64,000 nucleotides of DNA from Clostridia bacterium. Its GTDB lineage: Bacteria > Bacillota > Clostridia > JAAYHZ01. Shown piece by piece: positions 11,779-27,355 of the stretch; position 1 is the stretch's first letter; each line of letters starts with the position of its first letter. The stretch covers positions 64,001 through 128,000 of the forward strand of contig JBMNIH010000005.1 of the NCBI GenBank assembly GCA_050950825.1, read 5' to 3'. The position numbers and the translations under genes were made by a program. The notes beneath the pieces were generated by a model that saw only the letters and a program-made list of their open reading frames with translations, ran no database searches and was not told the DNA's origin.

Positions 11779-11938
11779 CCGCCCTACCTCCAAAAGATCG
11801 TGTGCGTTGGTACCTTTATTGTACATTAAAAATTCTCATCTTGCAGTATGGACTTTCTATTCTTTCTATATATAATATTCTTAAATGAGGCAAATCAGGT
11901 TTTTTCAAGAAGAAAAAGTAAAATGCCGAGAGGTTCCT

Positions 11939-13513
11939 ATGCAAAATATTGATCGAATCCAAGAAACCGCTTATCAACTGATTTTAGAATTTTTAACCGG
12001 TGAAGAAAAACCGATTCCCCGTTTCGACCTTAACGACGAAACGGCGCTTTTGAACCTGTTATATAACCGCAAAGTTCTGTTTGCTTTGTCGCCTCTTTTG
12101 GAAAAAAAGCTTTCCGCACCTTCCGTAACCAAAATGAAGGTTCTAACGGCTCATCATAAGAACGTAATTCGGAAAAGGCTTTCCGTTGCAAAAGAGGTGA
12201 TGGATACCGCCATAGAAAACCGTATCCCTTGCGTCTTCATCAAAGGCATGGCTTTATCCCGGCTCATATACGAAGACATATACATAAGACCGGGTAACGA
12301 TTTGGATTTTTGGACGGGCCCCGAATATGCATTGCCCCTTGCAGAAATCTTATTACAAAAAGACTTCTATATCAGCGGCCGCCCGGATCCGAAGACCGGG
12401 AAGGCGGAAAAAATTAAAAAGCCCGTTATGATTCCGGGCTCCTACTATTACGAATACACCGTAGAAAAGGAAGTCGACGGTTTTTCCATAAAAGCGGAGA
12501 TTAAAAAGCTATCCAGCGCCTTGCTATTCTTAAAGAACAGTCCCTATCGGGAAAACATGCTCCAATACACGGAAGAAATCGATTTGGAAGGAAACCGGTT
12601 TGTAACAAGCGATTTGGAATATACCCTTCTTCATTTGTGCGCAAACACATATGTTAATACCGAAAGCGAATTCGGCGTCCTTCATTCTCATCATTGGATC
12701 GATTACATGGATTTGTACCTTTTCTTAAAAAAGTATCAAAATGCTCTGGATTGGAAAAAGGTAAAAGAGCACGGAGAAAACTTGGGCATAACCCATCGAA
12801 TCTACAAAACCTTTAACGACGTCAAAGAATTGTTCGGTTTTCCGATGGACGAATCGATTATCGGACAGTTTACCTTTAACCCCGAAAATGTTACGCATGA
12901 AAGGGTATTCCCGAGCGGTTCCTTAACCGATTGGAAAATGAGCATCAAGGAAAGGTTTTTCTACCCTAAGGAACGGATTATCGAATACTATAAAGGTATA
13001 AGAGCCGAAAAATTCCGACAAGAATACGTAGAAAAAAGCACGTATCGGGTAGAAACAATCGACGACAATCCTCCTTTCTTACGGATGGCGGATGAAGCGG
13101 GGATTGATTACGCCGATTTAAGAATATATAAAGACGATAAAGGACTCTATTTTCATTTGGATCTTGCCGAGGTTGTTAAGAAAAATCCTACGGATTATCA
13201 AGTGCTTTTGTCCTTGTTCAATAACGACATGGAATCCGACGTCTACCAAACCGTCATCCGAACCCATTACGACTCCAACGGCATCTACGCCGATTTGGAG
13301 GATCACAAGCACAAAACGACCGACGCCCTAACGGCGGTGCAAAAGGATGACAGTATTCTTTTACATATCCCCTTCGACAGCATAATCGGGTGGAAAAAAA
13401 GGCTTCTTGCCTTCTCCATCTATTTTTTCAAAAAGATCGAAAACGGTGCCTACGATTACACGGCAGGGGTTATAAAGTCCGATTTGGAAAAAGCAAAGTA
13501 CATCCGGTTCTGA
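11939..13513 (+). CDS. Nucleotidyltransferase family protein (NTP_transf_5-like) with C-terminal extension
   Basis: FIKGMALSRLIY...RPGNDLDF and LLHLCAN...WIDYMDL match the NTP_transf_5 pattern. Start at ATG 11939 after GAGG. Confidence 0.75.
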   Translation: MQNIDRIQETAYQLILEFLTGEEKPIPRFDLNDETALLNLLYNRKVLFALSPLLEKKLSAPSVTKMKVLTAHHKNVIRKRLSVAKEVMDTAIENRIPCVFIKGMALSRLIYEDIYIRPGNDLDFWTGPEYALPLAEILLQKDFYISGRPDPKTGKAEKIKKPVMIPGSYYYEYTVEKEVDGFSIKAEIKKLSSALLFLKNSPYRENMLQYTEEIDLEGNRFVTSDLEYTLLHLCANTYVNTESEFGVLHSHHWIDYMDLYLFLKKYQNALDWKKVKEHGENLGITHRIYKTFNDVKELFGFPMDESIIGQFTFNPENVTHERVFPSGSLTDWKMSIKERFFYPKERIIEYYKGIRAEKFRQEYVEKSTYRVETIDDNPPFLRMADEAGIDYADLRIYKDDKGLYFHLDLAEVVKKNPTDYQVLLSLFNNDMESDVYQTVIRTHYDSNGIYADLEDHKHKTTDALTAVQKDDSILLHIPFDSIIGWKKRLLAFSIYFFKKIENGAYDYTAGVIKSDLEKAKYIRF

Positions 13514-16189: not shown

Positions 16190-17482
16190 TTACTGCTCGA
16201 TTTGGATTTCAAACCAAAAGAGGCTTCCTTTCCCCTCTTCGGTTTCCACTCCGTAGGTACCGTCGTGCATCTCGATAATCTTTTTGACAATGGAAAGACC
16301 TAAGCCCGTACCCATAATGGGCCGCTTATGATTCTTATCCACCTTATAATACCGATCCCGGATATAGGGTAAATCGCTCTTTCGAATCCCTTCTCCTTTG
16401 TCGATGACTTCGATTCTTACGTTTTTATCGTTTGTTCTTTGCCGTACCAAAACCGTTTTGTCTTCTCCGCTGTGGGTTATGGCATTGAGAAGAAGGTTAT
16501 ATAATACTTGGGTGATTTTCACCTCGTCGGCAACTACGCCAACATCCTCGAAGGCTTCAAACTCCAGCCGATAACCCTCGTGCTTTACAAGCTCGTTCAT
16601 CCGGTTGACGGTTCGTTTTAAGCTCTCCGTCAAGTTGTAGCTCATCTTGTTCAGCTTCGATACCCCCGCTTCAAGTAAAGAAATGTCCGGCATATCGTTC
16701 ACCAAGGAGGTTAATCGTTTTGTTTCGTCCATAATGATTTGACTTTGGTCCGGCGTAACCTCGTCCGGGAAGTCGTGCATCATCTCCGCATAGCTGTATA
16801 TGAGAGCAAGAGGGGTACGCAAATCGTGGGAGACGTTTGCAATCAGCTCCCGCCGCAGCCGCTCCGTCTTCGAAAGCTCGGTAGCCGCCGTGTTTAACGT
16901 ATCCGACAATTCCTTGATTTCCAAATACCCTTTCCCGCGAAATTCCGTGTCGTAGTTTCCCTTTGCCAATGCTTTTGCGCTTTGGTTGATTTTCTCAATG
17001 GGCTTGGATATGTGCTTGGCGATGAGGATGGCAAGCATGGTTGCCAAAAGCACCATCATCCCCGTAATGATAACAAGCCGGATTTGCAGGGTGGACACGG
17101 TGGAATCGACCGGGGTTATCATGGCGTGAAAGGTAAGCGATATCTTTTTGCCGTCCTCCAAAACAAACTCCCGGACCGAGGTTATGGTCTCCGGTCCGTT
17201 TTTATGTCTTCCCGGCGCAGGGAGAGAAGGAGGATAAAATTCTTGAGTCGGCCTTACGGTAATGGCTTTGGACGCTTCCAGCTCAAGCAGTATATTCCCT
17301 AGCTCCGGATTGTTAATATTTTTCTCCACCGTCTGAATCGCTTTTTCCATCTCCATCTTACGAACGAATTTATACATGTCGCTTAAAAAAACCGTCTGAA
17401 AAATCCACAGGATGGCCAAAAGCAATACGCAAAACCCCAGGAGAAAAATAAATATTTTCCATTTTAATTTCAGCTTATCCAT
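16190..17482 (-). CDS. HAMP-domain sensor histidine kinase
   Basis: Two TM segments, HAMP, ANVSHDLRTPL (H box), NLLLNAI, DKGEGI and GTGLGL. Confidence 0.95.
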   Translation of the reverse strand: MDKLKLKWKIFIFLLGFCVLLLAILWIFQTVFLSDMYKFVRKMEMEKAIQTVEKNINNPELGNILLELEASKAITVRPTQEFYPPSLPAPGRHKNGPETITSVREFVLEDGKKISLTFHAMITPVDSTVSTLQIRLVIITGMMVLLATMLAILIAKHISKPIEKINQSAKALAKGNYDTEFRGKGYLEIKELSDTLNTAATELSKTERLRRELIANVSHDLRTPLALIYSYAEMMHDFPDEVTPDQSQIIMDETKRLTSLVNDMPDISLLEAGVSKLNKMSYNLTESLKRTVNRMNELVKHEGYRLEFEAFEDVGVVADEVKITQVLYNLLLNAITHSGEDKTVLVRQRTNDKNVRIEVIDKGEGIRKSDLPYIRDRYYKVDKNHKRPIMGTGLGLSIVKKIIEMHDGTYGVETEEGKGSLFWFEIQIEQ

Positions 17483-18161
17483 CGAATCGATACCCCAGCC
17501 CGCGAAGGGTTTTTATATACTGTGCATAGGGGCCTAAGGATTTTCTTAGCAATTTCATATGGGTATCCAACGTTCGGTCGTCGCCGTAGTAGTTAAAGCC
17601 CCACACCTCCGTCATAATCTTTTCCCTTGGCACCGCTATGTTTTTATTCCGTATTAAGAAAAACAACAGGTCGTATTCTTTCGGCGACAAATTCACTTCC
17701 TCGCCGTCAATAAACACCTTGTATGCCGTCAAATCCGCTTTAAAGCCGTCTTTTTCGAAAACCACGTGGCCTTCGTCATCGGATTTTGCAGGCTTGCTTT
17801 TTTCCATACGGCGTAATATGGCGCCGATTCTCAGCATAATCTCCTTGGAAGAAAAGGGCTTTACCACGTAGTCGTCTACGCCGAGTTCAAAACCCAATAC
17901 CTTGTCATACTCTTCGCCCCGGGCGGACAGCATGATGATGGGAGTGTCCGAAAATTTACGAATTTCCTTTACGGCGGAAAAGCCGTCCATTCCCGGCATC
18001 ATGATATCCATAATGATGATGTCAAAATCGTTGTTTCGGCAAAGCTCTATGGCTTCCAAGCCGTCATCGGCTTCGAAAACCTCGTTGCCCTCGAAAACGG
18101 CATACCTTTTGATCACCGCTCGAAGGCCCGCTTCATCGTCGCATATTAGAATTTTTGCCAT
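17475..18161 (-). CDS. OmpR/PhoB family response regulator
   Basis: ILICDDE, MDIMMPGMDG, DDYVVKPF, LSPKEYDLL and TLRGLGYRF. Confidence 0.96.
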   Translation of the reverse strand: MAKILICDDEAGLRAVIKRYAVFEGNEVFEADDGLEAIELCRNNDFDIIIMDIMMPGMDGFSAVKEIRKFSDTPIIMLSARGEEYDKVLGFELGVDDYVVKPFSSKEIMLRIGAILRRMEKSKPAKSDDEGHVVFEKDGFKADLTAYKVFIDGEEVNLSPKEYDLLFFLIRNKNIAVPREKIMTEVWGFNYYGDDRTLDTHMKLLRKSLGPYAQYIKTLRGLGYRFDG

Positions 18162-18249: not shown

Positions 18250-20307
18250 CTAATAGCTTCTTTTATACCGTGCCACAAATACCGTGGCGGCAACCGGTAA
18301 AAGAACAAGCACACCCGTGAGTATCGGCGAATTGCTTTGATTATCCCGTGATCTCGGTATATTTATATTCGTACGGTTTTGGGTCCGCCCTTCCCGGTTC
18401 TCTTGGCCTCCCGGAAAGAACCCTCCCTGTCCCGGGCCGCCTTGGGCCGGCATTTGTCGGTCGGGAACGGCTCTTTGTTGTCCGTCTTGGAAAAACCATC
18501 CAAACCCGCCTTCTTGTTGGAATCCTCCCGGAAACTCAAAATTTCTACCGTCTCTGCCTCCTAGCATGCTTCCTAATACGGACAGGTTCAAATTTCCCGC
18601 AGGCACCAACTTATTCGGATTTTGGGCCTGTTCCTGCGTTGTAGAAGGAACCGATCCGTCAAGCTGCCCTTGCACGCTTTGGGCGCGGAGATTCCCTAGG
18701 GTTATAAACGCGGAGACGGCCGTTTTGTATTCCTCGTAAGAGCAAAAGGCGGTAGGGTCGTTTTTCACGTATTCGGAAATCAAAGCGTCCAGCTCTTTGA
18801 TTTTCTGCTCGAACTTCCCTTCCGAGAAATAGTTGTCAACCAACCGCTGCAAATAGCCGTGGTAGCGATCCTTGTATTCTTCATCGGACAACAGCTTATC
18901 GATCAAAGGACGGCTTGCCATGCTCACACCGCTTACGGGCGTGTCAACGGGAAAGTTGATCACGGAAGAAGCGCTGCTGTTAAAGAATCCGCCCCAAGCA
19001 AGGTTGTAGTCCCAAGGCAGGACGGTAACTTTTCCGTCTCGCTCGTAAATATAGTAGTTTTGCGCCATTTGGGAGCTGTAGCTGTCCAAGTTCACAACAA
19101 AGGTATGTGCCGCCAAATAGCGTAATATCTTGTCGATGTCAAAGTACTTTTCAAGGTCTTTTCCTTCCGATAAAGCTTTGATCGCTTCGATAACGCGTAA
19201 ATAATCTTTTTCCGTTCCTTTTCCTACCGTGTTGTTAAAAATCGCCGGGTAGCTTTGGGGGTTGTCATCGATGTATTCCAAGCTGCCTCCCGAGCCTCCT
19301 CTCATGCCCATACCCCCGAAGTTCCAATTAAACCCGCCGTTATTATTCCATGCCGGCGGATTGAAATCATCCATTGCCGGCGGATTATTATCACTCGTCC
19401 CCGGAGGATTGTTTTGAGGAGGATTCATAAAAGGCCAAGCGTTTTGCTGCGGAAAACGCGGAGTATTCGAGTCGGAGGGTTCTCTTGTCTCGGGAGGCGA
19501 ATCGGAAGGCGAAAACCCTCTCGGAGGTGTCGACGGCGCCCCTCCTTCATTTCGAGGCCCCTGTTGAAAACCGGGATTCTGCTGAAACGCACCTCCGAAA
19601 GGCATTTGGGGCCATCCTTCTTGCCTGTTCGGCATGTTTTCTTGTTCTCCCCGTCCGAAATCGCCGATGTTTCCTCCGAATCCCGACATTTTTACGTTGT
19701 ACAGCATTCCTTTCGTATCGCCGAAAACCCGCTGTTCATAGCTGTCGTTATACAGTTCCACGGCAAGGTACAGTCCCCAAGGTTCACCGTTTACCTTAAC
19801 CTCCGCATAACCGAAATAGGGAGCGTCTACGCCGGCTTCACGCGTCAAATCGTAGGAGATATACTCCTTCATGTATGTATAATCCCCTAGCATGTTGTTG
19901 ATAACAAAGCTTTCCAGGCCGAAACAGGTCTGTTTTTTGACGTATTCGTTAAATTGAAGGCGAAAGCTGTATCGATCGCTGTTGGAGCTTGCCACTTGGG
20001 TTAAGCTGGAGTTCCCTTTGGGGCGAATGCCGATGTTCATAAATTTCGTGCCGTTTACAATCACATCCGCCATAATAAACTGCTCGTTGATGGCATTGTC
20101 CAGCATTTCCTGCCAGTCGTCTTCATCCGCGAGGATGTCAATGGAAATGATGTCGGTACCGAAAATCTTCCGCGCATACTCCGGTTCCGTTTTCAGATTC
20201 CCCTTTTGGGCTTCCGTATTCGCTACCGCCACAAGGGTAACGCTTACGGCCAAGGCGAAAATTACGGCAATCGCCACGACAATATGTATCTTATTATTCT
20301 TAATCAT
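18250..20307 (-). CDS. cotH: CotH kinase family protein, secreted and C-terminally membrane-anchored, with low-complexity Gly/Pro/Gln inserts
   Basis: IGIRPKGNSS, SFRLQF, VNGEPWGLYLAVE, NLDSY, NYYIY and LPWDYNLAWG; N-terminal signal peptide and C-terminal TM segment. Confidence 0.85.
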   Translation of the reverse strand: MIKNNKIHIVVAIAVIFALAVSVTLVAVANTEAQKGNLKTEPEYARKIFGTDIISIDILADEDDWQEMLDNAINEQFIMADVIVNGTKFMNIGIRPKGNSSLTQVASSNSDRYSFRLQFNEYVKKQTCFGLESFVINNMLGDYTYMKEYISYDLTREAGVDAPYFGYAEVKVNGEPWGLYLAVELYNDSYEQRVFGDTKGMLYNVKMSGFGGNIGDFGRGEQENMPNRQEGWPQMPFGGAFQQNPGFQQGPRNEGGAPSTPPRGFSPSDSPPETREPSDSNTPRFPQQNAWPFMNPPQNNPPGTSDNNPPAMDDFNPPAWNNNGGFNWNFGGMGMRGGSGGSLEYIDDNPQSYPAIFNNTVGKGTEKDYLRVIEAIKALSEGKDLEKYFDIDKILRYLAAHTFVVNLDSYSSQMAQNYYIYERDGKVTVLPWDYNLAWGGFFNSSASSVINFPVDTPVSGVSMASRPLIDKLLSDEEYKDRYHGYLQRLVDNYFSEGKFEQKIKELDALISEYVKNDPTAFCSYEEYKTAVSAFITLGNLRAQSVQGQLDGSVPSTTQEQAQNPNKLVPAGNLNLSVLGSMLGGRDGRNFEFPGGFQQEGGFGWFFQDGQQRAVPDRQMPAQGGPGQGGFFPGGQENREGRTQNRTNINIPRSRDNQSNSPILTGVLVLLPVAATVFVARYKRSY

Positions 20308-20326
20308 GCTTTCACCCCATTAAACT

Positions 20327-20998
20327 TTAGTCGGCGTATTCGCCGTTGAAGCTTACAAGGCAAGCATTGTTCACTCCGTTTATCTTTAACAATTCATTTA
20401 AAAGCTTTGCCGACATGTCCAAAAGGCGTACTTCGACGGTAAGCTCGATGCCGTTTTTGGAAACGGTCTTCGATTTGATTATATTCTTCTTTGTTTTTTC
20501 CTTGATTAAATTCATGCAATCCTGCTCCGCTTTATCATCCGCAAGGTTCAGCACCACGATGTACGGCGTATCGGTGCTTTTCCTGTTTACGAAAATAAAG
20601 AGCATAAGACCGATGAATAGCGATCCGATGATGGCAAGCGGAATCAACCCCGCACCCAATACGATGCCCGCCGAAATCGCCCAGAACAAAAAGGCAATAT
20701 CCAAGGGCTCCTTAATGGCCGTTCGAAAACGAACAATGGATAACGCGCCTACCATACCGAGGGACAGCACCAAATTCGATGTGACCGCAAGGATGATGAG
20801 GGTAGTGATCATGGTCATCGCCATAATGGAAACACCGAAGGCCGCGGAGTACATGACCCCCGAATAGGTTTTTTTGTAAACGTAAAAGATAAACAGCCCG
20901 ATGGCGAAAGCAAGTAGCATGGCAAGGGCTACATCCAAAACGGAAAATTCAACGGCCTTTTCCAAAAAGCTCGATTTAAAAACATCTCGAAAAGTCAT
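20327..20998 (-). CDS. DUF4956 family membrane protein (MgtC-like)
   Basis: SNLVLSLGMVGALSIVRFRTAIKEPLD signature. Confidence 0.9.
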   Translation of the reverse strand: MTFRDVFKSSFLEKAVEFSVLDVALAMLLAFAIGLFIFYVYKKTYSGVMYSAAFGVSIMAMTMITTLIILAVTSNLVLSLGMVGALSIVRFRTAIKEPLDIAFLFWAISAGIVLGAGLIPLAIIGSLFIGLMLFIFVNRKSTDTPYIVVLNLADDKAEQDCMNLIKEKTKKNIIKSKTVSKNGIELTVEVRLLDMSAKLLNELLKINGVNNACLVSFNGEYAD

Positions 20999-21022
20999 AG
21001 CATTTCCTCCTCACAATCTCTT

Positions 21023-21700
21023 CTAAATATATCTTGCCGCTGCATATTTGGAAAACGACGTACTTTTTCTGCCGGAAAGCGAAACCGCACCTCGGATGAT
21101 TTCAGGCAAGAAGCTGTCGTACTTAACTTCGAGATTATACACGTCTTGAATGGGTATGGGAGCCGGTTCTTTTTTTAAGAAACCATAAACATTGGAGCCT
21201 GTTCGTATGTCGTAATCCAGCGTCACCCTCACGTTCCCCGGAGAGTATACAAACGCTTCGCGCCAATACTCCACAATGTTTTTCGGTCGAAGCTGCAGGT
21301 AAAACATTTTCGCATAAAGCTCCAAGCAGAAAGGATTCTCCTTTTCCTTTAAAACGGCATAATCCCCCGAAAGGAGCCTTTTGCAATCTTCCTCCGATAA
21401 AAGGGCACCTTCTTTATAGCATAAGCCGCCTTGCTTGCTCTTTTTTTCAAGGCGTATAAAAGAGGTATCGTTGTTGTACAACCTTAAGCGAAATTTCTCA
21501 CGCCCGTCTACTCCGTTGATTTTTTCCATTAACACTTTGTCGTTGTAATTATCGAAGTAGAGGCTTTTGACACGATAGCCGTATCCTTCCTTGGAGTTCT
21601 CATCCCGTTTTGCGATTAGGGAAAGCCGGGACCGAAGCTCCAACAAATCGGCGTAATTGATATAGTGCTTCAGCTCACGTCTGCCGCATGGTCGGCTCAT
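21023..21700 (-). CDS. VTC-domain (polyphosphate polymerase-like, CYTH superfamily) protein
   Basis: RRELKH, SLYFD, EKINGVDGREKFRLRLY, LEKKSK, RVTLD, LEVKYD and FSKY. Start at ATG 21700 after AGGAGAGG. Confidence 0.9.
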   Translation of the reverse strand: MSRPCGRRELKHYINYADLLELRSRLSLIAKRDENSKEGYGYRVKSLYFDNYNDKVLMEKINGVDGREKFRLRLYNNDTSFIRLEKKSKQGGLCYKEGALLSEEDCKRLLSGDYAVLKEKENPFCLELYAKMFYLQLRPKNIVEYWREAFVYSPGNVRVTLDYDIRTGSNVYGFLKKEPAPIPIQDVYNLEVKYDSFLPEIIRGAVSLSGRKSTSFSKYAAARYI

Positions 21701-21731
21701 CCTCTCCTCTCCTTTCCTCTCGGATAAGTCC

Positions 21732-21785
21732 ATTATAGGCGATGAAACTGAAATGCATTTGTCCGTTATCTGAACTTTATCTGAA
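21732..21785 (-). promoter_or_regulatory. Promoter with an OmpR-type direct-repeat operator upstream of the VTC operon
   Basis: TTATCTGAA at 21766 and 21777 (11-bp period) and an in-phase CTGAA at 21748; TATAAT on the minus strand at 21732-21737. Confidence 0.6.
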
Positions 21786-21834
21786 AATTTTATAAAGAAT
21801 CCATATAAAAAAGTCAAGAAGAAAATATCCGGTA

Positions 21835-23223: not shown

Positions 23224-23248
23224 AAAAAGGAGTCGCTCGTGACTCCTT
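23224..23248 (-). terminator. Rho-independent terminator ending the RiPP operon
   Basis: Minus strand reads AAGGAGTC-ACGAGC-GACTCCTTTTT. Confidence 0.65.
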
Positions 23249-23316: not shown

Positions 23317-23790
23317 TTATTTTATCCTATGCTTCGAAAGCATGCAAATCCATTTGTAATATCGGCCTTTAAAAACTTGCTCCGTGTTTTTCACAACAAG
23401 AAACCTTTTATGCATCTTTAAAGAAAGAAAGACAATCAAAATGCTTTTTAAGCCGTAGGAGACCTTCTGCTCCGTTCCGTCGTCCCTGATTATTGTAACC
23501 ACCCTTCCGAAGCAATCCTTCGGATCAACGCTTTCGACGGCTACGGCATGGTCGCCTTTTATATACCACATATCCTTTTTCATTCGAACGATTCGGTGGG
23601 TAAGAAGCCTTCCTTTTTGATCAAAGGCGGTCACGATATCCCCTATTCGATAGCTTTCCGCTTTTTCAAGAACCACTTGATCCCCGGAGGATATGATAGG
23701 TTCCATACTGACTCCCTTCACCGTGATGCGATTGTTGTTTTGTCTTAATTGTATTTCGGTCAGAGCTTTATACAGATTGGTTTGATCCAT
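23317..23790 (-). CDS. S24/S26 family (signal peptidase-like) serine peptidase
   Basis: GVSMEP (catalytic Ser), GDIV, LTHRIV and IKGD. Confidence 0.85.
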   Translation of the reverse strand: MDQTNLYKALTEIQLRQNNNRITVKGVSMEPIISSGDQVVLEKAESYRIGDIVTAFDQKGRLLTHRIVRMKKDMWYIKGDHAVAVESVDPKDCFGRVVTIIRDDGTEQKVSYGLKSILIVFLSLKMHKRFLVVKNTEQVFKGRYYKWICMLSKHRIK

Positions 23791-24601
23791 GGACGGTTCC
23801 TCTTAAAACCTCTTCTACATAATCCATACGGCTGTAGTTTAATTCATGCGTTCCGGCCTTTGCAAGCTCAATCAACAATTGGACGAAAGAAGGATCCGGT
23901 TTTTGGACGGTATATTGATTCTTCAAAAGCATTAAAAACCCTTCCTGTGACGAGAGCGGGCTTAAAGCTTGGATATCCTTTGTTCTTGCGATCTTGAATA
24001 TTCCTGCCAATGAATACTCCGAGTTTTTATATGACGCGTATACGACCTTTCTCTTGATATCTCCGTACTCGAAAAACTCCCCTTCGACGTCGATTCCGCA
24101 ATTTGTTAAAACCTCCGCTCCGCCTTCTCTTAATTGGATCGGACGAGGAAAAGGAATGATTTTTTTATCTTTTTTACGTATAAGCGCCAAGTCGTCCGAC
24201 AAATAGTCGAATCCCCGCTTGACCAAATAGGCGGTGAGGGTGGATTTTCCGGATCCCGTAGTTCCGGTTAGGATAAAGGCTTTGCCGGATAAACCGACTA
24301 CGGCTCCGTGTATGGCAAGAATCTCCTCGTCTACGGTCGTGGATTCGAACAGAATGTTTTCTATGGCTTGCAAGGCATAGCCACGAGGGATTTTTATCGT
24401 GCTTCCTTGGCAAGTAAAAAGACCGATTTTTGCTTCGTAGGTAATCTCCACGGTCCGGTCTTCGGAGACAGTTTCAAGGCGCATCGGGTTTTGTATAAAG
24501 GGATTGTAGAAAGCATAGAGAATTCGGGTTAACGATTCATCGTCGGTATTCACAACAACAACGGGTTTTTGATAGGGGCGTTTGATTCGTATTTTATGCA
24601 T
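23768..24601 (-). CDS. HPr kinase-related P-loop kinase
   Basis: IHGAVV...AFILTGTTGSGKSTL...YLSDD...IIPFP pattern of HprK-related (PadeK/ScmC-like) kinases. Confidence 0.8.
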   Translation of the reverse strand: MHKIRIKRPYQKPVVVVNTDDESLTRILYAFYNPFIQNPMRLETVSEDRTVEITYEAKIGLFTCQGSTIKIPRGYALQAIENILFESTTVDEEILAIHGAVVGLSGKAFILTGTTGSGKSTLTAYLVKRGFDYLSDDLALIRKKDKKIIPFPRPIQLREGGAEVLTNCGIDVEGEFFEYGDIKRKVVYASYKNSEYSLAGIFKIARTKDIQALSPLSSQEGFLMLLKNQYTVQKPDPSFVQLLIELAKAGTHELNYSRMDYVEEVLRGTVHGSNQSV

Positions 24602-25625
24602 GTAGATCTTCCCTGCGCATAGTCAGTACGTTTTTTGCCACTTGTCTGGATATTTGCAGTTTTCGGAAATTGCAGTCCCCGTCATCGGCAAGATAATCCT
24701 TCGTAAGATGATATGCGGATGCGGCGCAGCCTCTTCCGCATAAGTTTTTGCTTATACATTTGTGGCATCCGTAGTCGCACTTTTGTCTTTCCGACAATAG
24801 CGATTGCAGCTCCTTCAGTTTTTCTTCCATGGAGTCGAAATCAAGCCGGTACAAGGAACCGACGGAAAATTCGGGTTCATACAAGTTTTGGCAAGGTTGA
24901 ATGTCTCCGTTGGATTTAACGCAGATACTCAGCCGGTCTAAATTAATTATGGAGCAATTAAAAGTGGCGTAAGGTACGGTAGTCTTAATCCCGTACTTTT
25001 CTTGAAGCTTCTCGATTTTTTCAATGACCTTCAGTTTTTCTTCGGGAGTCAGTTCGATTTCCCTCCAATACCGGTCCGCATGTCCCATTTTCTCCGCAAA
25101 TGCAAAGGAAGGCTTGCAATTGTTTTCAATTGCAAGCACAAAATACTCCTCAACTAAACTGAAATTAAGTCGAGAAACGGTCATTTTGATGATCGGAGAG
25201 ACCTTAGGCTGAAAAGAAGACAAATTTCTCATTGTCTTCATGTAACTGCCTTTTTCCCGAACCCTTGCGTTAGTTTCGTCATCGATACCGTCAATACTGA
25301 ACTGTACGGAGAAACGATCATCCGTTTCCAGTAGACGATAAAAACGGTCGCATCGTACGGTGCCGTTTGTCACCACGAAGAAAGACAATTCTTTGTGCTT
25401 TTCCATCACATCCAGAACCTGTCCCCACTGTCGGTGCAGCAACGGTTCGCCTCCGGAAATGTCAAAGATGGATAATCCGTATCTTTGATGAAAAGCAACA
25501 AGAAACTTTTCAAGCTCATCGGCCGGAATTTCCTGCAGTTCCCTTTTTGAGCCGGATGCGTTGTAGCAATGTCGGCAATTCAGATTGCACCTATTCGTAA
25601 TTTCCACATAGCAAGACCGTATCAT
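24594..25625 (-). CDS. Radical SAM / SPASM domain peptide maturase
   Basis: CNLNCRHC (CxxxCxxC), SGGEP, TNG and SIDG; SPASM cysteines C..NGDIQPC...CHKC....CGRGC...DGDC. Confidence 0.93.
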   Translation of the reverse strand: MIRSCYVEITNRCNLNCRHCYNASGSKRELQEIPADELEKFLVAFHQRYGLSIFDISGGEPLLHRQWGQVLDVMEKHKELSFFVVTNGTVRCDRFYRLLETDDRFSVQFSIDGIDDETNARVREKGSYMKTMRNLSSFQPKVSPIIKMTVSRLNFSLVEEYFVLAIENNCKPSFAFAEKMGHADRYWREIELTPEEKLKVIEKIEKLQEKYGIKTTVPYATFNCSIINLDRLSICVKSNGDIQPCQNLYEPEFSVGSLYRLDFDSMEEKLKELQSLLSERQKCDYGCHKCISKNLCGRGCAASAYHLTKDYLADDGDCNFRKLQISRQVAKNVLTMRREDLHA

Positions 25626-25906
25626 CCGACTGTTTCTTTCTCCGCTTTTTTCAGTAAACCGTTCTCTACAAACCGGTTTACCAATTCCTTAATGTCATTT
25701 TGAATAACGCTGCGTTCACCTTCGTACTTTTCAAGCAGCATGTCCGTAGCTTCTTCAAGATCCCTTTCGGTCTCAAAGCAGTTCAAGACATCCAAAGCTA
25801 TACCGTCTAACACCAGGGTATTCCCCGTGCTGCCGTCAAAGTATACACAGCCTTCTCCGTCGTCTAAGGGCATTTCCTCATAGACGATGCTCTTTATGAA
25901 CCTCAT
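25622..25906 (-). CDS. PqqD family RiPP recognition element (RRE)
   Basis: 94 aa; VYFDGSTGNTLVLDGIALDVLNCF...LLEKYE...IQNDIKELVNRFVENGLL. Confidence 0.88.
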   Translation of the reverse strand: MRFIKSIVYEEMPLDDGEGCVYFDGSTGNTLVLDGIALDVLNCFETERDLEEATDMLLEKYEGERSVIQNDIKELVNRFVENGLLKKAEKETVG

Positions 25907-26052
25907 AGAGCCATCCTACCTATGCGTATGAGATCACAAGCAACTCCATAGGTTGAGCATGCTCCGGAAACCACAACCTTATTGAGCTCATCCAACGTGA
26001 TGACCTCCATTGTCGGTTTCTGCCACTGCTTCTTGATCGTTTCTTGTTTCAT
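25903..26052 (-). CDS. Putative RiPP precursor peptide, 49 aa: MKQETIKKQWQKPTMEVITLDELNKVVVSGACSTYGVACDLIRIGRMAL
   Basis: Not in the ORF track; translated by hand. AGGAGG RBS upstream; its TGA overlaps the RRE start (ATGA); KKQWQKPTMEV leader; two Cys in the C-terminal part. Confidence 0.88.
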   Translation of the reverse strand: MKQETIKKQWQKPTMEVITLDELNKVVVSGACSTYGVACDLIRIGRMAL

Positions 26053-26074
26053 TGTTCAATCCTCCTATCGATTA

Positions 26075-27136
26075 TTAGTGTATAATCTTTTTCAGTTGTC
26101 TTAAGGCAATATTGATTGAATCCGGTCGGATCTTGTAATAGGAGCGCTTGCCTTCGTTTCTTCTTTCCACCAATCCCGATTGGTACAAAATATCCAAATG
26201 GTGGGACAGGGAGGATAAGGGTAATCCCAATCGCTCCGCGATTTCACTGGCAAACAATTCCCCGTCTTTAATGGTTTTGATGATGCTTATTCGTGTTTCA
26301 TCGGTAAAGGCTTTGAAGAACGTAATTTCATCCTCGTGAATATCCTGTACGACCTGCAAGCCTCTATCGTAATCAAATCCTAAATATACATTCAAAGTCC
26401 GTCTATACATTCGATATTGTATGGTATAGGGTATGAAAAATCCTACGGCAAGTCGAACCGTTGTAAATCGGCCTGATTTTACAAGGCTTGCATAGTTATC
26501 GGACATCTTCATAAGCCGGCTGTCGCCGTAGGCTTCAAATCTTTTTCCGACGGTTTCATAATATTCATCGATCAATTTTCGGTGGTTATCGTACTCGATT
26601 TCCAACTCTCTTGCAAAGTCCGTCAATGATTTGACTATTTTTCGCTTCGTTCCTTCAGGGGATTCGATCAACGATAGCATGTTCCATTTCAGGTCCGCAT
26701 CCAAATTGATGCCGTCCAAAAACACCATTAACAGTTTCTTGTTTTCTAATAGGAATTGATAAAAGGAGTCGGGAAAATGATTCTTCGAATCATAAAAATC
26801 CAATAATTTTATTTGCAATTCATCGGTGTCGATATCGTTAAAAGCATTGATTAACTCCTCAATGGATTCACCGTTCACCAACGATTCCGCCATTAAATTA
26901 GGAAAAAAGGTCATTCCGTTATCACATGTGTGAAAAAAAAGGCGAATCAAAGGAAGGTCATTTTTTATGTATTCTCGTAAACGAGAATACGCGGTTTTAA
27001 CATTTCGCGGCACAGAGAGGTCATAATCGGTATAGATTTCATCAAGATTTTTGCACCGCGTTAACAGATTAAGAAGAGCAGTAAAATCATAAATTTTACC
27101 CTTCTCCGGCTCGTACAAGTATGTTATGTCATTCAT
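26075..27136 (-). CDS. ArsR/SmtB family regulator (C-terminal wHTH, large N-terminal domain)
   Basis: FFKAFTDETRISII...FASEIAERLGLPLSSLSHHLDILYQSGLV...GKRSYY. Confidence 0.85.
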   Translation of the reverse strand: MNDITYLYEPEKGKIYDFTALLNLLTRCKNLDEIYTDYDLSVPRNVKTAYSRLREYIKNDLPLIRLFFHTCDNGMTFFPNLMAESLVNGESIEELINAFNDIDTDELQIKLLDFYDSKNHFPDSFYQFLLENKKLLMVFLDGINLDADLKWNMLSLIESPEGTKRKIVKSLTDFARELEIEYDNHRKLIDEYYETVGKRFEAYGDSRLMKMSDNYASLVKSGRFTTVRLAVGFFIPYTIQYRMYRRTLNVYLGFDYDRGLQVVQDIHEDEITFFKAFTDETRISIIKTIKDGELFASEIAERLGLPLSSLSHHLDILYQSGLVERRNEGKRSYYKIRPDSINIALRQLKKIIH

Positions 27137-27327: not shown

Positions 27328-27355
27328 ATTATATCATTCCTTTGTTTAAATTCAA
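27328..27355 (-). promoter_or_regulatory. SigmaA promoter for the ArsR-RiPP operon
   Basis: Minus strand TTGAAT-N16-TATAAT with an extended TGn, in an AT-rich intergenic region. Confidence 0.6.

Follow-up and report, generated by a model that had tools for sequence, protein, structure and literature searches.

A 49-codon gene overlooked in a Clostridia operon probably encodes the RiPP precursor of a pathway with a radical SAM/SPASM enzyme, a kinase and a peptidase

Within the window (the whole 64,000-nucleotide stretch of DNA analysed here), neighbouring minus-strand genes encode a regulator, a discrete RRE, a radical SAM (rSAM)/SPASM enzyme, an HprK-like kinase and a SipW-type peptidase, which raises the question of what these proteins act on. 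The gene caller overlooked the substrate of what is a six-gene operon; with a 49-aa peptide ORF between the regulator and RRE genes included, the operon can be read as one pathway. From comparison of the sequences we consider it likely, at a probability of roughly 0.7, that this ORF encodes a RiPP precursor and that the operon regulator-peptide-RRE-rSAM/SPASM-kinase-peptidase matures its product. Within this reading we infer RRE binding, the kind of cross-link, the phosphosite, the cleavage site, the order of the steps and the biological role. The genes and flanking signals are, in the direction of transcription:

27328..27355, minus strand: promoter-like site TTGAAT-16-TATAAT, TG-extended (10/12 in a consensus scan), about 190 nt upstream of the regulator gene
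26075..27136, minus strand: regulator, 353 aa, with an N-domain of about 270 aa and a C-terminal ArsR/SmtB winged helix (NF033788, Pfam)
26061..26066, minus strand: Shine-Dalgarno sequence AGGAGG, read from the sequence, 8 nt before the peptide ATG (26050-26052)
25903..26052, minus strand: precursor peptide gene, 49 aa and stop (ORF, translation and family conservation)
25622..25906, minus strand: discrete RRE of the PqqD family, 94 aa (Pfam PqqD, 40.1 bits vs. cut-off 23.4)
24594..25625, minus strand: radical SAM/SPASM peptide maturase, 343 aa, without fused RRE (Pfam Radical_SAM, Fer4_12)
23768..24601, minus strand: HprK-like P-loop kinase, 277 aa (TIGR04352 HprK_rel_A, sub-threshold; P-loop GTTGSGKST in the translation)
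23317..23790, minus strand: SipW/archaeal-type signal-peptidase-I-like serine peptidase, 157 aa, with a hydrophilic N-terminus (Pfam Peptidase_S24)
23227..23248, minus strand: hairpin followed by a T-run, terminator-like (scan, 8-9 pairs, both strands; pattern match alone)

Downstream of the peptide gene the reading frames overlap by 4 nt (RRE/rSAM), 8 nt (rSAM/kinase) and 23 nt (kinase/peptidase). The rSAM/SPASM gene, placed between the RRE and kinase genes, is translationally coupled, and the gene is conserved in relatives. The promoter-like site at 27328..27355 is a pattern match alone, the scan having returned 11 sites vs. 9.9 expected in shuffles. The hairpin, which lies between the peptidase gene and the next gene, is the probable end of the operon. 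Searches with NCBIfam and Pfam found no transporter or exporter among the genes at 23317-27136 or the four genes downstream, and no NTP_transf_5 gene within the operon.

Translation of 25903..26052 on the minus strand gives MKQETIKKQWQKPTMEVITLDELNKVVVSGACSTYGVACDLIRIGRMAL, the same string from which the sequence-only reading had claimed a hidden 49-aa ORF, and Cys32, Ser33 and Cys39 are at the positions it gave. The AGGAGG ribosome-binding site and the coupling to the RRE gene, also claimed there, could be confirmed directly: the spacing to the start codon is 8 nt, and the peptide TGA (25903-25905) shares bases with the ATG of the PqqD/RRE gene (25904-25906), which results in an ATGA overlap. 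The peptide is divided as follows:

25960..26052, minus strand: predicted leader, residues 1-31, ending in V-S-G-A (Trp-Cys1 spacing; small residues at -1/-3)
26014..26025, minus strand: codons of W10-Q-K-P13, a putative WxxP RRE-binding motif (conserved in the family; lasso_PadeA_fam match)
25906..25959, minus strand: predicted core, residues 32-49, CSTYGVACDLIRIGRMAL, with Cys32, Ser33, Tyr35 and Cys39 (C-[ST]-x-[aromatic]-x(n)-C conserved)

The leader up to the proposed cut reads KKQWQKPTMEVITLDELNKVVVSGA and is followed by CS.

A word-index search with the window peptide returned 6 near relatives, and a profile search of 1.84 billion representatives gave 34 short proteins at E<=1e-3. By six-frame search, peptide matches were observed in 13/399 scored genomes of the class sample and in 0/400 other genomes of the phylum sample. 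Motifs were counted in a family set of 59 unique peptides with the consensus WxxP...ELKK...ACS. WxxP and Cys1-Ser/Thr are each present in 56/59, and a second Cys, as C[ST]x(2-9)C, in 55/59. The distance from Trp to Cys1 is 22 residues in 54/55 peptides, and this fixed spacing between WxxP and core provides a simple search rule for further members. All rows of a 37-row alignment have P13 and C32, and conservation reaches at least 90% for W10, E22, L23, A31, S33 and C39. Conservation of the WxxP motif and of the Cys across homologous loci had been set beforehand as a test on which the precursor would stand or fall, and both are kept.

A metagenome copy of the locus (L049) is 97% identical to the window over 2807 bp, with mismatches of 13.3% in the peptide gene, 6.2% in the regulator, 1.8% in the RRE and 0.3% in the rSAM gene. 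Residues 10-33 of the peptide show synonymous changes only, and the peptide ends and the core vary; a constant leader with a variable core is the usual RiPP pattern. An untranslated chance ORF in a short intergenic stretch would be in line with the small size of the frame and with Pfam, which gave zero family matches for the peptide. However, sequence, motif spacing and position are conserved across genera, changes in residues 10-33 are silent, and the frame has a strong RBS and a coupled stop/start. As far as sequence can show, the comparative data refute a chance ORF, to which we assign a negligible probability.

Orthologues of the RRE, rSAM, kinase and peptidase are found together with the peptide, which, along with the conserved WxxP and Cys, bears out the precursor role proposed for it. 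By these comparisons, the 49-aa ORF is very probably the real precursor of an RRE/rSAM/kinase/peptidase pathway. Two loci of another genus have the order regulator-peptide-RRE-rSAM, and one of them goes on with kinase and peptidase. The full gene set was seen in loci L032, L033 and L039 and also in L034, where RRE and peptidase form one fusion protein; in L047 the set is complete except that no peptide gene adjoins it, and L046 has RRE, peptidase and rSAM. Natural fusions are of two kinds, peptidase-PqqD in L034 and peptidase-NTP_transf_5 in L032, and NTP_transf_5 is encoded separately in L034 and L041. An ABC transporter was found near L034 only, among the loci examined. In the 400-genome class sample, the rSAM matched at E<=1e-60 in 9 genomes, 8 of which carry the peptide; the ninth (G397, E=1e-65) has a kinase, a two-Cys peptide with a YxxP leader, PqqD, rSAM and peptidase. 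Three genomes (G240, G342 and G029; 86%, 92% and 72% complete) hold family peptides with no rSAM match at E<=1e-20 to the query used, and two (G057 and G108) show weak peptide matches with no rSAM match at E<=1e-60. Judged from these matches, the link between peptide family and rSAM is not strict. Both the peptide and the rSAM are missing from the other genome of the window's genus.

The RRE is the sole PqqD-family gene in the window's genome, and a word-index search with it returned only 2 near-identical proteins. In NCBIfam the lasso PqqD chaperone model matches it best, at a score under the cut-off, and in the PDB the best sequence matches, although weak, are to two lasso B1 proteins, TfuB1 (E=0.077) and TbiB1 (E=0.22). 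As a first step of the proposed pathway, the discrete RRE would bind the leader via W10-x-x-P13, as lasso RREs and those of linear polyphosphorylated peptides (LPP) do with [Y/W]xxP, and would present a core starting 22 residues after the Trp. A model of the RRE-peptide complex, which the sequence-only reading had called for, speaks weakly for such binding: it scored 0.36 in each of 3 runs vs. 0.01 for the best of 3 controls, in a range (0.60 or under) where only 7/80 solved complexes, but both of the mismatched pairs that passed, are found. The mark itself is reached by 58/80 solved complexes and 2/110 mismatched pairs. At least 72% of the contacts agreed between runs and the partner pLDDT was at least 54, with an RRE alignment of 8 rows only. 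Structures of RRE-leader complexes of a similar kind have been solved, and the model may reflect this likeness only.

The leader had been described as closely resembling that of paeninodin. This likeness is measurable, since NCBIfam lasso_PadeA_fam (NF033524) matches residues 7-19 of the window peptide (E=0.0016), but its 18.1 bits stay below the cut-off of 27, and only 4/37 family members match at E<=0.01. Paeninodin-type lasso systems (PadeA) share with the window a WxxP leader with preceding basic residues, a discrete B1-like RRE and an HprK-like kinase (plus a nucleotidyltransferase) among the tailoring enzymes. If the peptide were a lasso precursor of this type, Cys1 and Asp9 would close a 9-residue macrolactam ring. 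Asp40 is indeed residue 9 from Cys32 in the window core, and the matches of both leader and RRE point in the same direction. Yet the 97%-complete genome contains 0 PF00733 (Asn_synthase) and 0 PF13471 (Transglut_core3, B2) matches and only one RRE, the precursor remains under the model's cut-off, the Cys spacing in the family varies from 3 to 8, and D or E directly follows Cys2 in just 16/54 peptides. We rejected the lasso precursor on the ground that the genome lacks both a lasso cyclase and a B2 cysteine protease, and consider it extremely improbable.

Returning to the rSAM/SPASM pathway, the next question is which reaction the enzyme performs. C13, C17 and C20 of its CX3CX2C motif are invariant in 9 orthologues, in which the 7-Cys SPASM pattern is also complete (C224, G240, C245, C287, C290, C296, C300 and C318). 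The Pfam SPASM model did not match the window rSAM at E<=0.01, although the Cys pattern is complete. Of the matches obtained by searching the genome contigs with the rSAM, only one was a true orthologue, and five were unrelated rSAMs (22-35% identity); the family as a whole comprises at least about 55 clusters at 90% identity (E<1e-60), which carry generic names only. As a second step this enzyme, having no RRE of its own, would modify the two-Cys core C-S-x-Y-x(n)-C, and the most likely product would be one or two Cys-derived thioether cross-links of the sacti- or ranthipeptide type.

SkfB and CteB are thioether-forming enzymes, SuiB forms a C-C cross-link and EpeE is an epimerase. Among PDB sequences SkfB was the best match of the window rSAM (E=8.9e-13), and CteB was matched at E=2e-6. 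Fold comparison matched CteB (2.1e-14) and SuiB (1.3e-13) and also anSME, SkfB and EpeE. The best NCBIfam matches are spread over the mycofactocin maturase, ScmE, NirJ2 and PapB, all far under their cut-offs. On this evidence, we give a thioether product a chance slightly short of even. The acceptor residues proposed for it did not hold: at 16/54 an acidic residue after Cys2 is no family feature, Thr34 occupies a variable position, and we rejected both Asp40 and Thr34 as conserved thioether acceptors.

Alternatively, the precursor may be real and the radical reaction a different one, that is, a C-C or C-O cross-link at Tyr35, epimerisation or another radical reaction, with the two Cys engaged in a disulfide or in metal binding. 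At Cys1+3, aromatic residues (Y 34, F 12, H 3 and W 2, or 51/56 in all) come close to Cys2 in conservation, SuiB, anSME and EpeE are about as close in fold as CteB, a thioether acceptor is conserved in no position, and the NCBIfam matches extend across many chemistries. Against this stand the two Cys themselves (Cys1 in all and Cys2 in at least 90% of the 37 rows, both present in 55/59), the replacement of the aromatic residue by G, N, L or Q in 5/56 peptides, and the fact that the best sequence match among solved structures is to the thioether synthase SkfB. We regard a non-thioether reaction as a less probable outcome, at well under even odds.

Sacti- and ranthipeptide maturases (SkfB, CteB, PapB) resemble the window enzyme in combining rSAM with a full SPASM domain and in acting on Cys-containing cores. 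They differ in that their RRE is an N-terminal domain, here a separate protein, and the window rSAM scores far below the cut-offs of all curated models of this group (PapB 82.7/340 bits over the full length, StsB 76.3/625, SkfB 57.9/300 and AlbA 52.4/850). No sacti- or ranthipeptide cluster with a kinase and a SipW-type peptidase was found in the literature covered. The short, variable two-Cys cores of this rSAM family are easy to express and to analyse, so new cross-link chemistry would be directly testable.

The two remaining enzymes would act on the modified core and on the leader. The kinase matched TIGR04352 HprK_rel_A with 73.2 bits (E=1.9e-20; cut-off 200), Pfam Hpr_kinase_C with 31.2 bits (cut-off 33.3) and HPr kinases of the PDB at E=3.4e-4. 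The peptidase exceeded the cut-off of Peptidase_S24 (32.3 vs. 23.3 bits) and remained below those of TIGR02228 sigpep_I_arch (42.4 vs. 51.85 bits) and SipW (25.4 bits). G26, S28, M29, P31, H65, R66, K78, G79 and D80 are invariant in 9 homologues, and by alignment S28/H65/D80 are the predicted catalytic Ser/His/Asp, which is intact.

As a third step, the HprK-like kinase would phosphorylate Ser33, possibly more than once. Ser33 is the only conserved hydroxyl residue of the family core, with Thr in its place in a few members (e.g., P0022 and the L035 peptide). Of the two phospho-acceptors suggested earlier, Thr34 is variable in the family, and Ser33 is plausible because it is the sole conserved core hydroxyl and because LppK, the kinase of the LPP pathway of Bacilli (Popov et al., Nat Commun 2026), places several phosphates on core Ser3 and does not accept Thr, according to the accessible text of PMC13381572. 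By this analogy, we put phosphorylation of Ser33 at about even odds. In paeninodin it is the C-terminal Ser that is phosphorylated (PMC7533575 and PMC13381572, accessible text); phosphorylation in this style is ruled out here because 0/59 family peptides end in Ser. The rumen lasso clusters of PMC7533575 include an HPr kinase, and the word radical does not occur in the accessible part of that paper.

In the fourth step, the soluble Ser/His/Asp peptidase would remove the leader at Ala31|Cys32 while it is held by the RRE. Signal peptidases prefer small residues at -1 and -3. At -1, 48 of 55 family peptides have A, 6 have G and 1 has T; the residues at -3 are A (25), S (14), V (6), L (5), I (2), T (2) and K (1). 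The cut after ...SGA with small -3/-1 residues, as anticipated from the single sequence, fits this distribution (A or G at -1 in 54/55), and we consider cleavage at A31|C32 somewhat more likely than not.

The closest match to this set of proteins is the LPP system, as described in the accessible text of PMC13381572. There the SpI-like peptidase LppS (S29/H68/D93) cuts the leader only with the RRE LppB, and a [Y/W]xxP leader motif serves RRE binding. Both systems, which belong to the Bacillota, have an RRE, an HprK-like kinase and an SpI-like Ser/His/Asp peptidase, the discrete RRE being encoded together with the peptidase; a [Y/W]xxP leader at a fixed distance from the cleavage site; a Ser near the start of the core; and an NTP_transf_5 accessory, found here in relatives of the window locus. 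They differ, first of all, in the rSAM/SPASM gene within the operon: the terms radical, rSAM and SPASM are absent from the accessible text of PMC13381572, and phosphorylation would not be the sole class-defining modification here, the rSAM/SPASM being conserved in the operon. The LPP leader YxxPxVLxHQxIxFETxxS given in that text contrasts with WxxPxME...(D/E)EL...[SA]xA|CS here, and the distance from the motif to the core is 16 residues there vs. 22 from the Trp here. The core is short in this family (roughly 10-20 residues) and has two Cys, the operon is without an MsbA-like exporter and without a nucleotidyltransferase, and the peptide gene follows one for an ArsR-type regulator that has a private N-domain. 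As hosts, instead of Bacilli, there are class-level relatives of the window (13/399, vs. 0/400 elsewhere in the phylum).

The RRE/kinase/SpI-like peptidase kit known from LPP of Bacilli would thus also serve an rSAM enzyme in another class, and RRE-guided leader removal by a signal-peptidase-like enzyme would therefore be in more general use among RiPPs. Clusters linked to an rSAM, outside SSN cluster 1, might be included in Supplementary Data 1-2 of PMC13381572, which list 199 SpI homologues with their co-occurring domains. In the literature covered, outside of which lie most subscription journals, no RiPP cluster with an rSAM, an HprK-like kinase and a signal-peptidase-like protease was found.

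Among in silico systems of NCBIfam/TIGRFAMs, the GeoRSP and SynChlorMet cassettes combine rSAM/SPASM, PqqD and HprK-related proteins. The window proteins scored far below the cut-offs of the GeoRSP models (GeoRSP_rSAM 58.9/400 bits, geo_PqqD_fam 17.2/100, HprK_rel_B 30.9/200) and of the SynChlorMet models (ScmE 91.3/400, ScmF 78.3/400, ScmC 18.2/125). These weak matches suggest the same kind of three-part gene set. No experimental description of GeoRSP or SynChlorMet was found in the literature covered.

What remains to be placed is the regulator, of which only the C-terminal part has a recognizable family. NF033788 HTH_metalloreg matched residues 272-342 with 74.6 bits, above the cut-off of 55, and the Pfam matches are HTH_20 and HTH_5. 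With Foldseek and with VIA-align (wide), only residues ~250-353 of the AF2 model (pLDDT 89.7) aligned, to ArsR-family repressors. DUF5937 came up in the ESM Atlas at 0.87, a value that the tool ranks as no more than a lead. In the window the N-domain forms one protein with ArsR, and some relatives encode it as a protein by itself; a 284-aa form without HTH is homologous to it (hhalign probability 93%, E=3e-7, 247 columns). An N-domain homologue is encoded directly upstream (-29 to +41 nt; 22 nt in the window) of 14/19 locus peptides, and in L034 and L040, 2 of the 5 misses, blastp detected a regulator ORF adjoining the peptide. Regulator-peptide pairs also occur apart from enzyme genes (L035, L036 vs. 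L046, L047). Across four genomes of a single genus, identity is 30-48% among the N-domain proteins encoded next to the peptide, vs. 37-69% for the enzymes and 55-93% for the other regulator.

The steady pairing of the peptide gene with a fast-evolving N-domain points to a receptor or immunity function. The peptide could then be mainly a signal or cognate ligand, with the N-domain reading the variable core or the mature product and the two forming specificity pairs that control the operon; such a role would be compatible with maturation by the operon enzymes. It accords with the adjacency in 14/19 loci, with pairs located away from the enzymes, with the N-domain form that has no HTH, and with the low identity of the N-domain proteins relative to the enzymes within one genus. 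Peptide and regulator are also the divergent genes between near-identical strains (the 13.3% and 6.2% vs. 1.8% and 0.3% of the L049 comparison). However, the regulator of L048 shows 11 non-synonymous changes with an identical peptide, so co-variation is not strict. Fast evolution could also stem from relaxed constraint or recombination, the operon has neither exporter nor importer, and RiPP clusters often have, beside the precursor gene, a regulator that is not a receptor. We consider a mainly signalling peptide rather unlikely.

Taken with the preferred reading of a matured RiPP precursor, these features allow for a RiPP class of its own, in which a cross-linking rSAM/SPASM enzyme has been added to a lasso/LPP recruitment kit of WxxP leader, discrete RRE, HprK-like kinase and signal-peptidase-like leader protease, and in which every precursor gene is paired with a rapidly diversifying receptor domain of ~270 aa, free or fused to an ArsR DNA-binding domain. 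We give this proposal an outside chance. If true, it would describe a separate class so far seen only in part of one Bacillota class, and, based on radical-SAM chemistry, a pherotype-like system of peptides and receptors specific to the strain.

One further gene of the window may belong to the accessory functions:

11885..13513, plus strand: NTP_transf_5 protein, 542 aa (PF14907, 71.3 bits; single match in the genome)

The gene is located ~11 kb from the operon on the opposite strand. Its product is a possible trans-acting tailoring enzyme, and its membership of the pathway is uncertain. The similarity to the peptidase-fused form in L032 reached E=0.014 only, and the NTP_transf_5 protein encoded beside a peptide/regulator pair in L041 is 22% identical to it over 416 aa (E=1e-17).

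The sequence-only reading had placed in the window a hidden 49-AA precursor peptide with a paeninodin-like, RRE-binding leader and a two-Cys core. Translation of the ORF at 25903..26052 (minus strand) gave MKQETIKKQWQKPTMEVITLDELNKVVVSGACSTYGVACDLIRIGRMAL. An AGGAGG motif, read as the reverse complement of 26061-26066, is located 8 nt 5′ of the peptide ATG, inside the 22-nt gap that follows the stop codon of the 353-AA gene, and the peptide's stop codon TGA shares bases with the start ATG of the gene that follows, encoding a PqqD-family protein (ATGA). The ORF, its ribosome-binding site and its coupling to the RRE gene, as described earlier, were all confirmed in the sequence. From their coordinates, the downstream genes overlap by 4, 8 and 23 nt, in this order, and a terminator-like scan revealed a hairpin with a T-run at 23227-23248, 3′ of the last operon gene.

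Genes of the operon
26075-27136, minus strand: regulator, 353 AA; C-terminal ArsR/SmtB winged helix (NF033788, 74.6 bits, above cut-off), approximately 270 N-terminal residues without family match
25903-26052, minus strand: peptide, translated ORF
25622-25906, minus strand: PqqD-family protein (the RRE), 94 AA; Pfam 40.1 bits; top NCBIfam model is a lasso PqqD chaperone, below cut-off
24594-25625, minus strand: radical SAM (rSAM) protein, 343 AA
23768-24601, minus strand: HprK-related P-loop protein, 277 AA; HprK_rel_A E=1.9e-20, below cut-off
23317-23790, minus strand: Peptidase_S24/archaeal-type signal peptidase I homologue, 157 AA

Beyond the hairpin lie an aldehyde dehydrogenase gene and a VTC-domain/DUF4956/CotH group; we treated these as separate from the operon. 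Close downstream of the operon, the group (18250-21817 with 16190-18161, minus strand) encodes a VTC-domain protein, DUF4956 and CotH kinase, then a response regulator and histidine kinase; the CotH kinase has 685 AA and a long Pro/Gly/Asn/Gln-rich insert. VTC domains are those of polyphosphate polymerases. For a peptide that may be phosphorylated, such a neighbour is curious; the hairpin lies between the two.

A word-index search returned six near relatives of the peptide (39-49 AA), and an 8-sequence profile run against 1.84 billion representatives gave 34 proteins at E<=1e-3, all of 31-66 AA. In a 37-row alignment no row departs from P13 or C32, and conservation is at least 90% at W10, E22, L23, A31, S33 and C39. 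Pooling the database matches with the peptides of the fetched loci, and keeping close kin, gave 59 unique peptides. The expected conservation of WxxP and of both Cys was borne out among them: WxxP and [AGST]-C-[ST] each occurred in 56/59, and a second Cys 2-9 residues past Cys-Ser/Thr in 55/59. Motif misses were two truncated entries (P0007, P0031), P0019 with R for W, P0035 with no second Cys, and the doubtful match L042. The distance from Trp to the first Cys was exactly 22 in 54 of 55 peptides. Before this Cys, position −1 held A 48, G 6 and T 1 times, and position −3 held A 25, S 14, V 6, L 5, I 2, T 2 and K 1 times (n=55 each); no peptide ended in Ser (0/59).

Comparison with a metagenome contig (L049) sharing 97% identity with the window across 2807 bp showed differences at 20/150 bases of the peptide gene, 55/891 (6.2%) of the regulator part, 5/281 of the RRE gene and 4/1463 (0.3%) of the rSAM part. 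The amino-acid changes of the peptide fall at residues 5, 6 and 14 and at core residues 34, 37, 42, 44 and 47-49, with residues 10-33 otherwise changed synonymously only. This is the pattern of RiPP precursors, whose leader stays constant and whose core varies. On the comparative data the peptide ORF is real, and its interpretation as a precursor stands.

Some family members depart from this form. Another metagenome contig (L052, 554-691) has a copy of an L003-type peptide in which Ser is replaced by a stop codon (...IV*GACS), either a pseudogene or a sequencing error. In the peptides of loci L040, L043 and L019 (G240, G342), just three residues separate the two Cys (CSDWC, CSLFC, CSNYC) and the tail is rich in Trp; those of L040 and L043 adjoin a regulator. 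No rSAM orthologue in their genomes was matched with the rSAM query used, and these peptides may be matured differently.

Two loci from another genus of the same family carry regulator, peptide, PqqD and rSAM genes in the window's order, one running on into kinase and peptidase and the other stopping at a contig edge. Among the fetched loci, the full gene set was found in L032, L033 and L039 and, with RRE and peptidase fused, in L034; L047 has RRE, kinase, peptidase, regulator and rSAM with no adjoining peptide gene, and L046 has RRE, peptidase and rSAM. In a six-frame search of a 400-genome class sample, the peptide profile matched 13/399 scored genomes and 9/217 genera, compared to 0/400 other genomes of a like phylum sample at E<=1e-4. 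A 9-row rSAM alignment matched 9 genomes of the class sample at E<=1e-60; eight of these are sources of the query alignment and match by construction, and no further genome of the 400 held a close rSAM orthologue. Five genomes had a peptide match without an rSAM match, which counts against a strict peptide-rSAM tie; among them, G057 and G108 gave weak peptide matches. No rSAM match at E<=1e-20 was seen in G029, G240 and G342 (72%, 86% and 92% complete). Neither peptide nor rSAM was found in a second genome of the window's genus.

Three of the operon's genes match the kit of the linear polyphosphorylated peptides (LPP), a family of Bacilli defined by Popov et al. (Nat Commun 2026, PMC13381572). 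According to the article text, the LPP leader carries YxxPxVLxHQxIxFETxxS, core Ser3 receives several phosphates from the kinase LppK, and the SpI-like peptidase LppS (S29/H68/D93), of a type previously undescribed in RiPP pathways, cleaves after T-1 solely with the leader presented by the RRE, LppB; RRE specificity is determined by the Tyr or Trp of [Y/W]xxP (PMC13381572). The terms radical, rSAM, SPASM and Clostridi have zero occurrences in this text. The window leader differs from that of LPP, with a Trp-to-core distance of 22 in its family vs. 16, and the operon is without exporter and nucleotidyltransferase and adds an rSAM enzyme. Judged by gene content, it would recruit and process its peptide in the manner of the LPP kit, in the service of a radical-SAM maturase. 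The tests run placed the peptide in neither the LPP, the lasso nor any curated sacti/ranthi family.

A distant cousin in genome G397 (L053, G397:C3, 5559-10294), an extra, weaker rSAM match (E=1e-65), encodes kinase, a 69-AA two-Cys peptide with a YxxP-type leader (YSKP), PqqD, rSAM, a 542-AA unknown protein and peptidase, indicating that the design of rSAM plus LPP kit exists with a Tyr-type leader too. At L046 (G198:C2, 14680-16176), approximately 5 kb from the RRE-peptidase-rSAM genes, a second small set with an HprK-like protein, a 97-AA ORF (PqqD-like by eye) and an S24-type peptidase, and no rSAM, resembles a plain LPP-type cluster.

The paeninodin likeness of the leader held in part: residues 7-19 match the precursor model of the paeninodin family at E=0.0016 and 18.1 bits, vs. 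a cut-off of 27, and 4/37 family members match it at all. Among solved sequences, those closest to the RRE belong to the lasso B1 proteins TfuB1 (E=0.077) and TbiB1 (E=0.22). A lasso peptide was rejected, as the 97% complete window genome has no Asn_synthase-family or Transglut_core3 protein and its sole PqqD gene is the operon's RRE. Lasso peptides with a Cys1-Asp9 ring have a ring of 9 residues. The span from Cys32 to Asp40 in the window peptide is also 9 residues; given that the genome lacks a cyclase, this may be a trace of lasso-precursor ancestry or a coincidence.

Binding of the leader by the RRE was examined by controlled complex prediction, using alignments of 8 rows for the RRE and 37 for the peptide. 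Each of three runs scored 0.36, vs. 0.01 for the best of three controls, with at least 72% contact agreement and partner pLDDT of at least 54. The score mark was passed by 58/80 solved complexes and 2/110 mismatched pairs, and at <=0.60 by 7/80 and both of these mismatches; as similar RRE-leader complexes are already solved, a pass may show likeness alone. The model lends weak support to the proposed binding and shifts the view little, since the motif had already made it probable.

Among solved sequences, the rSAM protein matches the thioether synthase SkfB best (E=8.9e-13) and CteB next (E=2e-6). Foldseek with its AF2 model (pLDDT 89.2) ranked CteB (2.1e-14), SuiB (1.3e-13), anSME and SkfB (1.8e-13), then ChlB and EpeE, effectively tied. 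NCBIfam matches (mycofactocin maturase 96 bits, ScmE 91, NirJ2 85, PapB 83) are all far below cut-offs, and database relatives carry generic names only. Because the peptide has two conserved Cys, Cys-derived thioethers are the likeliest product, a tentative assignment to which we give slightly less than even odds. Asp40, put forward earlier as a possible acceptor, is not a family feature: D or E follows the second Cys in 16/54 peptides, and no thioether acceptor is conserved. This, with the conserved aromatic residue three positions past the first Cys (Y 34, F 12, H 3, W 2; n=56), keeps in play a carbon-carbon or carbon-oxygen link at an aromatic residue instead of a thioether.

Nine rSAM orthologues keep C13, C17 and C20 (the CX3CX2C cluster site) and C224, G240, C245, C287, C290, C296, C300 and C318, the complete 7-Cys SPASM pattern; the Pfam SPASM model gave no match to the window rSAM at E<=0.01. 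Nine peptidases keep G26-x-S28-M29-x-P31, H65-R66 and K78-G79-D80, with the Ser/His/Asp set of SipW-type signal peptidases. By these residues both enzymes look active, and the peptidase is expected to be soluble, given its hydrophilic N-terminus (by eye). In L034 peptidase and PqqD (RRE) domains form a single 265-AA protein, which argues that the two share one substrate. A 709-AA protein in L032 has an N-terminal peptidase followed by NTP_transf_5, with similar proteins of 693-714 AA (by length and blastp) in L033, L039, L047 and L054. The sole NTP_transf_5 gene of the window genome (11885-13513, plus strand) lies 11 kb from the operon; its product, a possible member of the pathway, matches one beside the L041 peptide/regulator pair (E=1e-17 over 416 residues).

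A profile of the regulator's N-terminal domain (N-domain) picked out an ORF −29 to +41 nt upstream of 14/19 locus peptides (22 nt in the window). Among the misses, L034 and L040 have an adjoining regulator ORF by blastp, one overlapping beyond the limit set and the other cut by a contig end; in L041 it is downstream, L019 is on a 2.4-kb contig, and L042 is doubtful. Some regulator-peptide pairs lie on contigs separate from those of the enzymes. One genus encodes, ahead of the first peptide gene, a 284-AA protein that consists of the N-domain and has no DNA-binding part (hhalign probability 93%, E=3e-7, 247 columns). N-domain proteins evolve fast: the L049 regulator part differs at 6.2% of bases, vs. 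0.3% for the rSAM part, the L048 regulator has 11 non-synonymous vs. 3 synonymous changes, and across four genomes of one genus these proteins are 30-48% identical, vs. 37-69% for the enzymes and 55-93% for the other regulator. In L048 the peptide is unchanged, which argues against strict co-variation. Two structure searches with the confident AF2 model of the regulator (pLDDT 89.7) aligned the winged helix alone. Lacking a family match, the N-domain (window 26075-27136, minus strand; L032:8961-9815; L032:7404-8801; L036; L038) stands ahead of nearly all peptide genes, in some joined to an ArsR winged helix and in others on its own, as the fastest-evolving gene of the locus.
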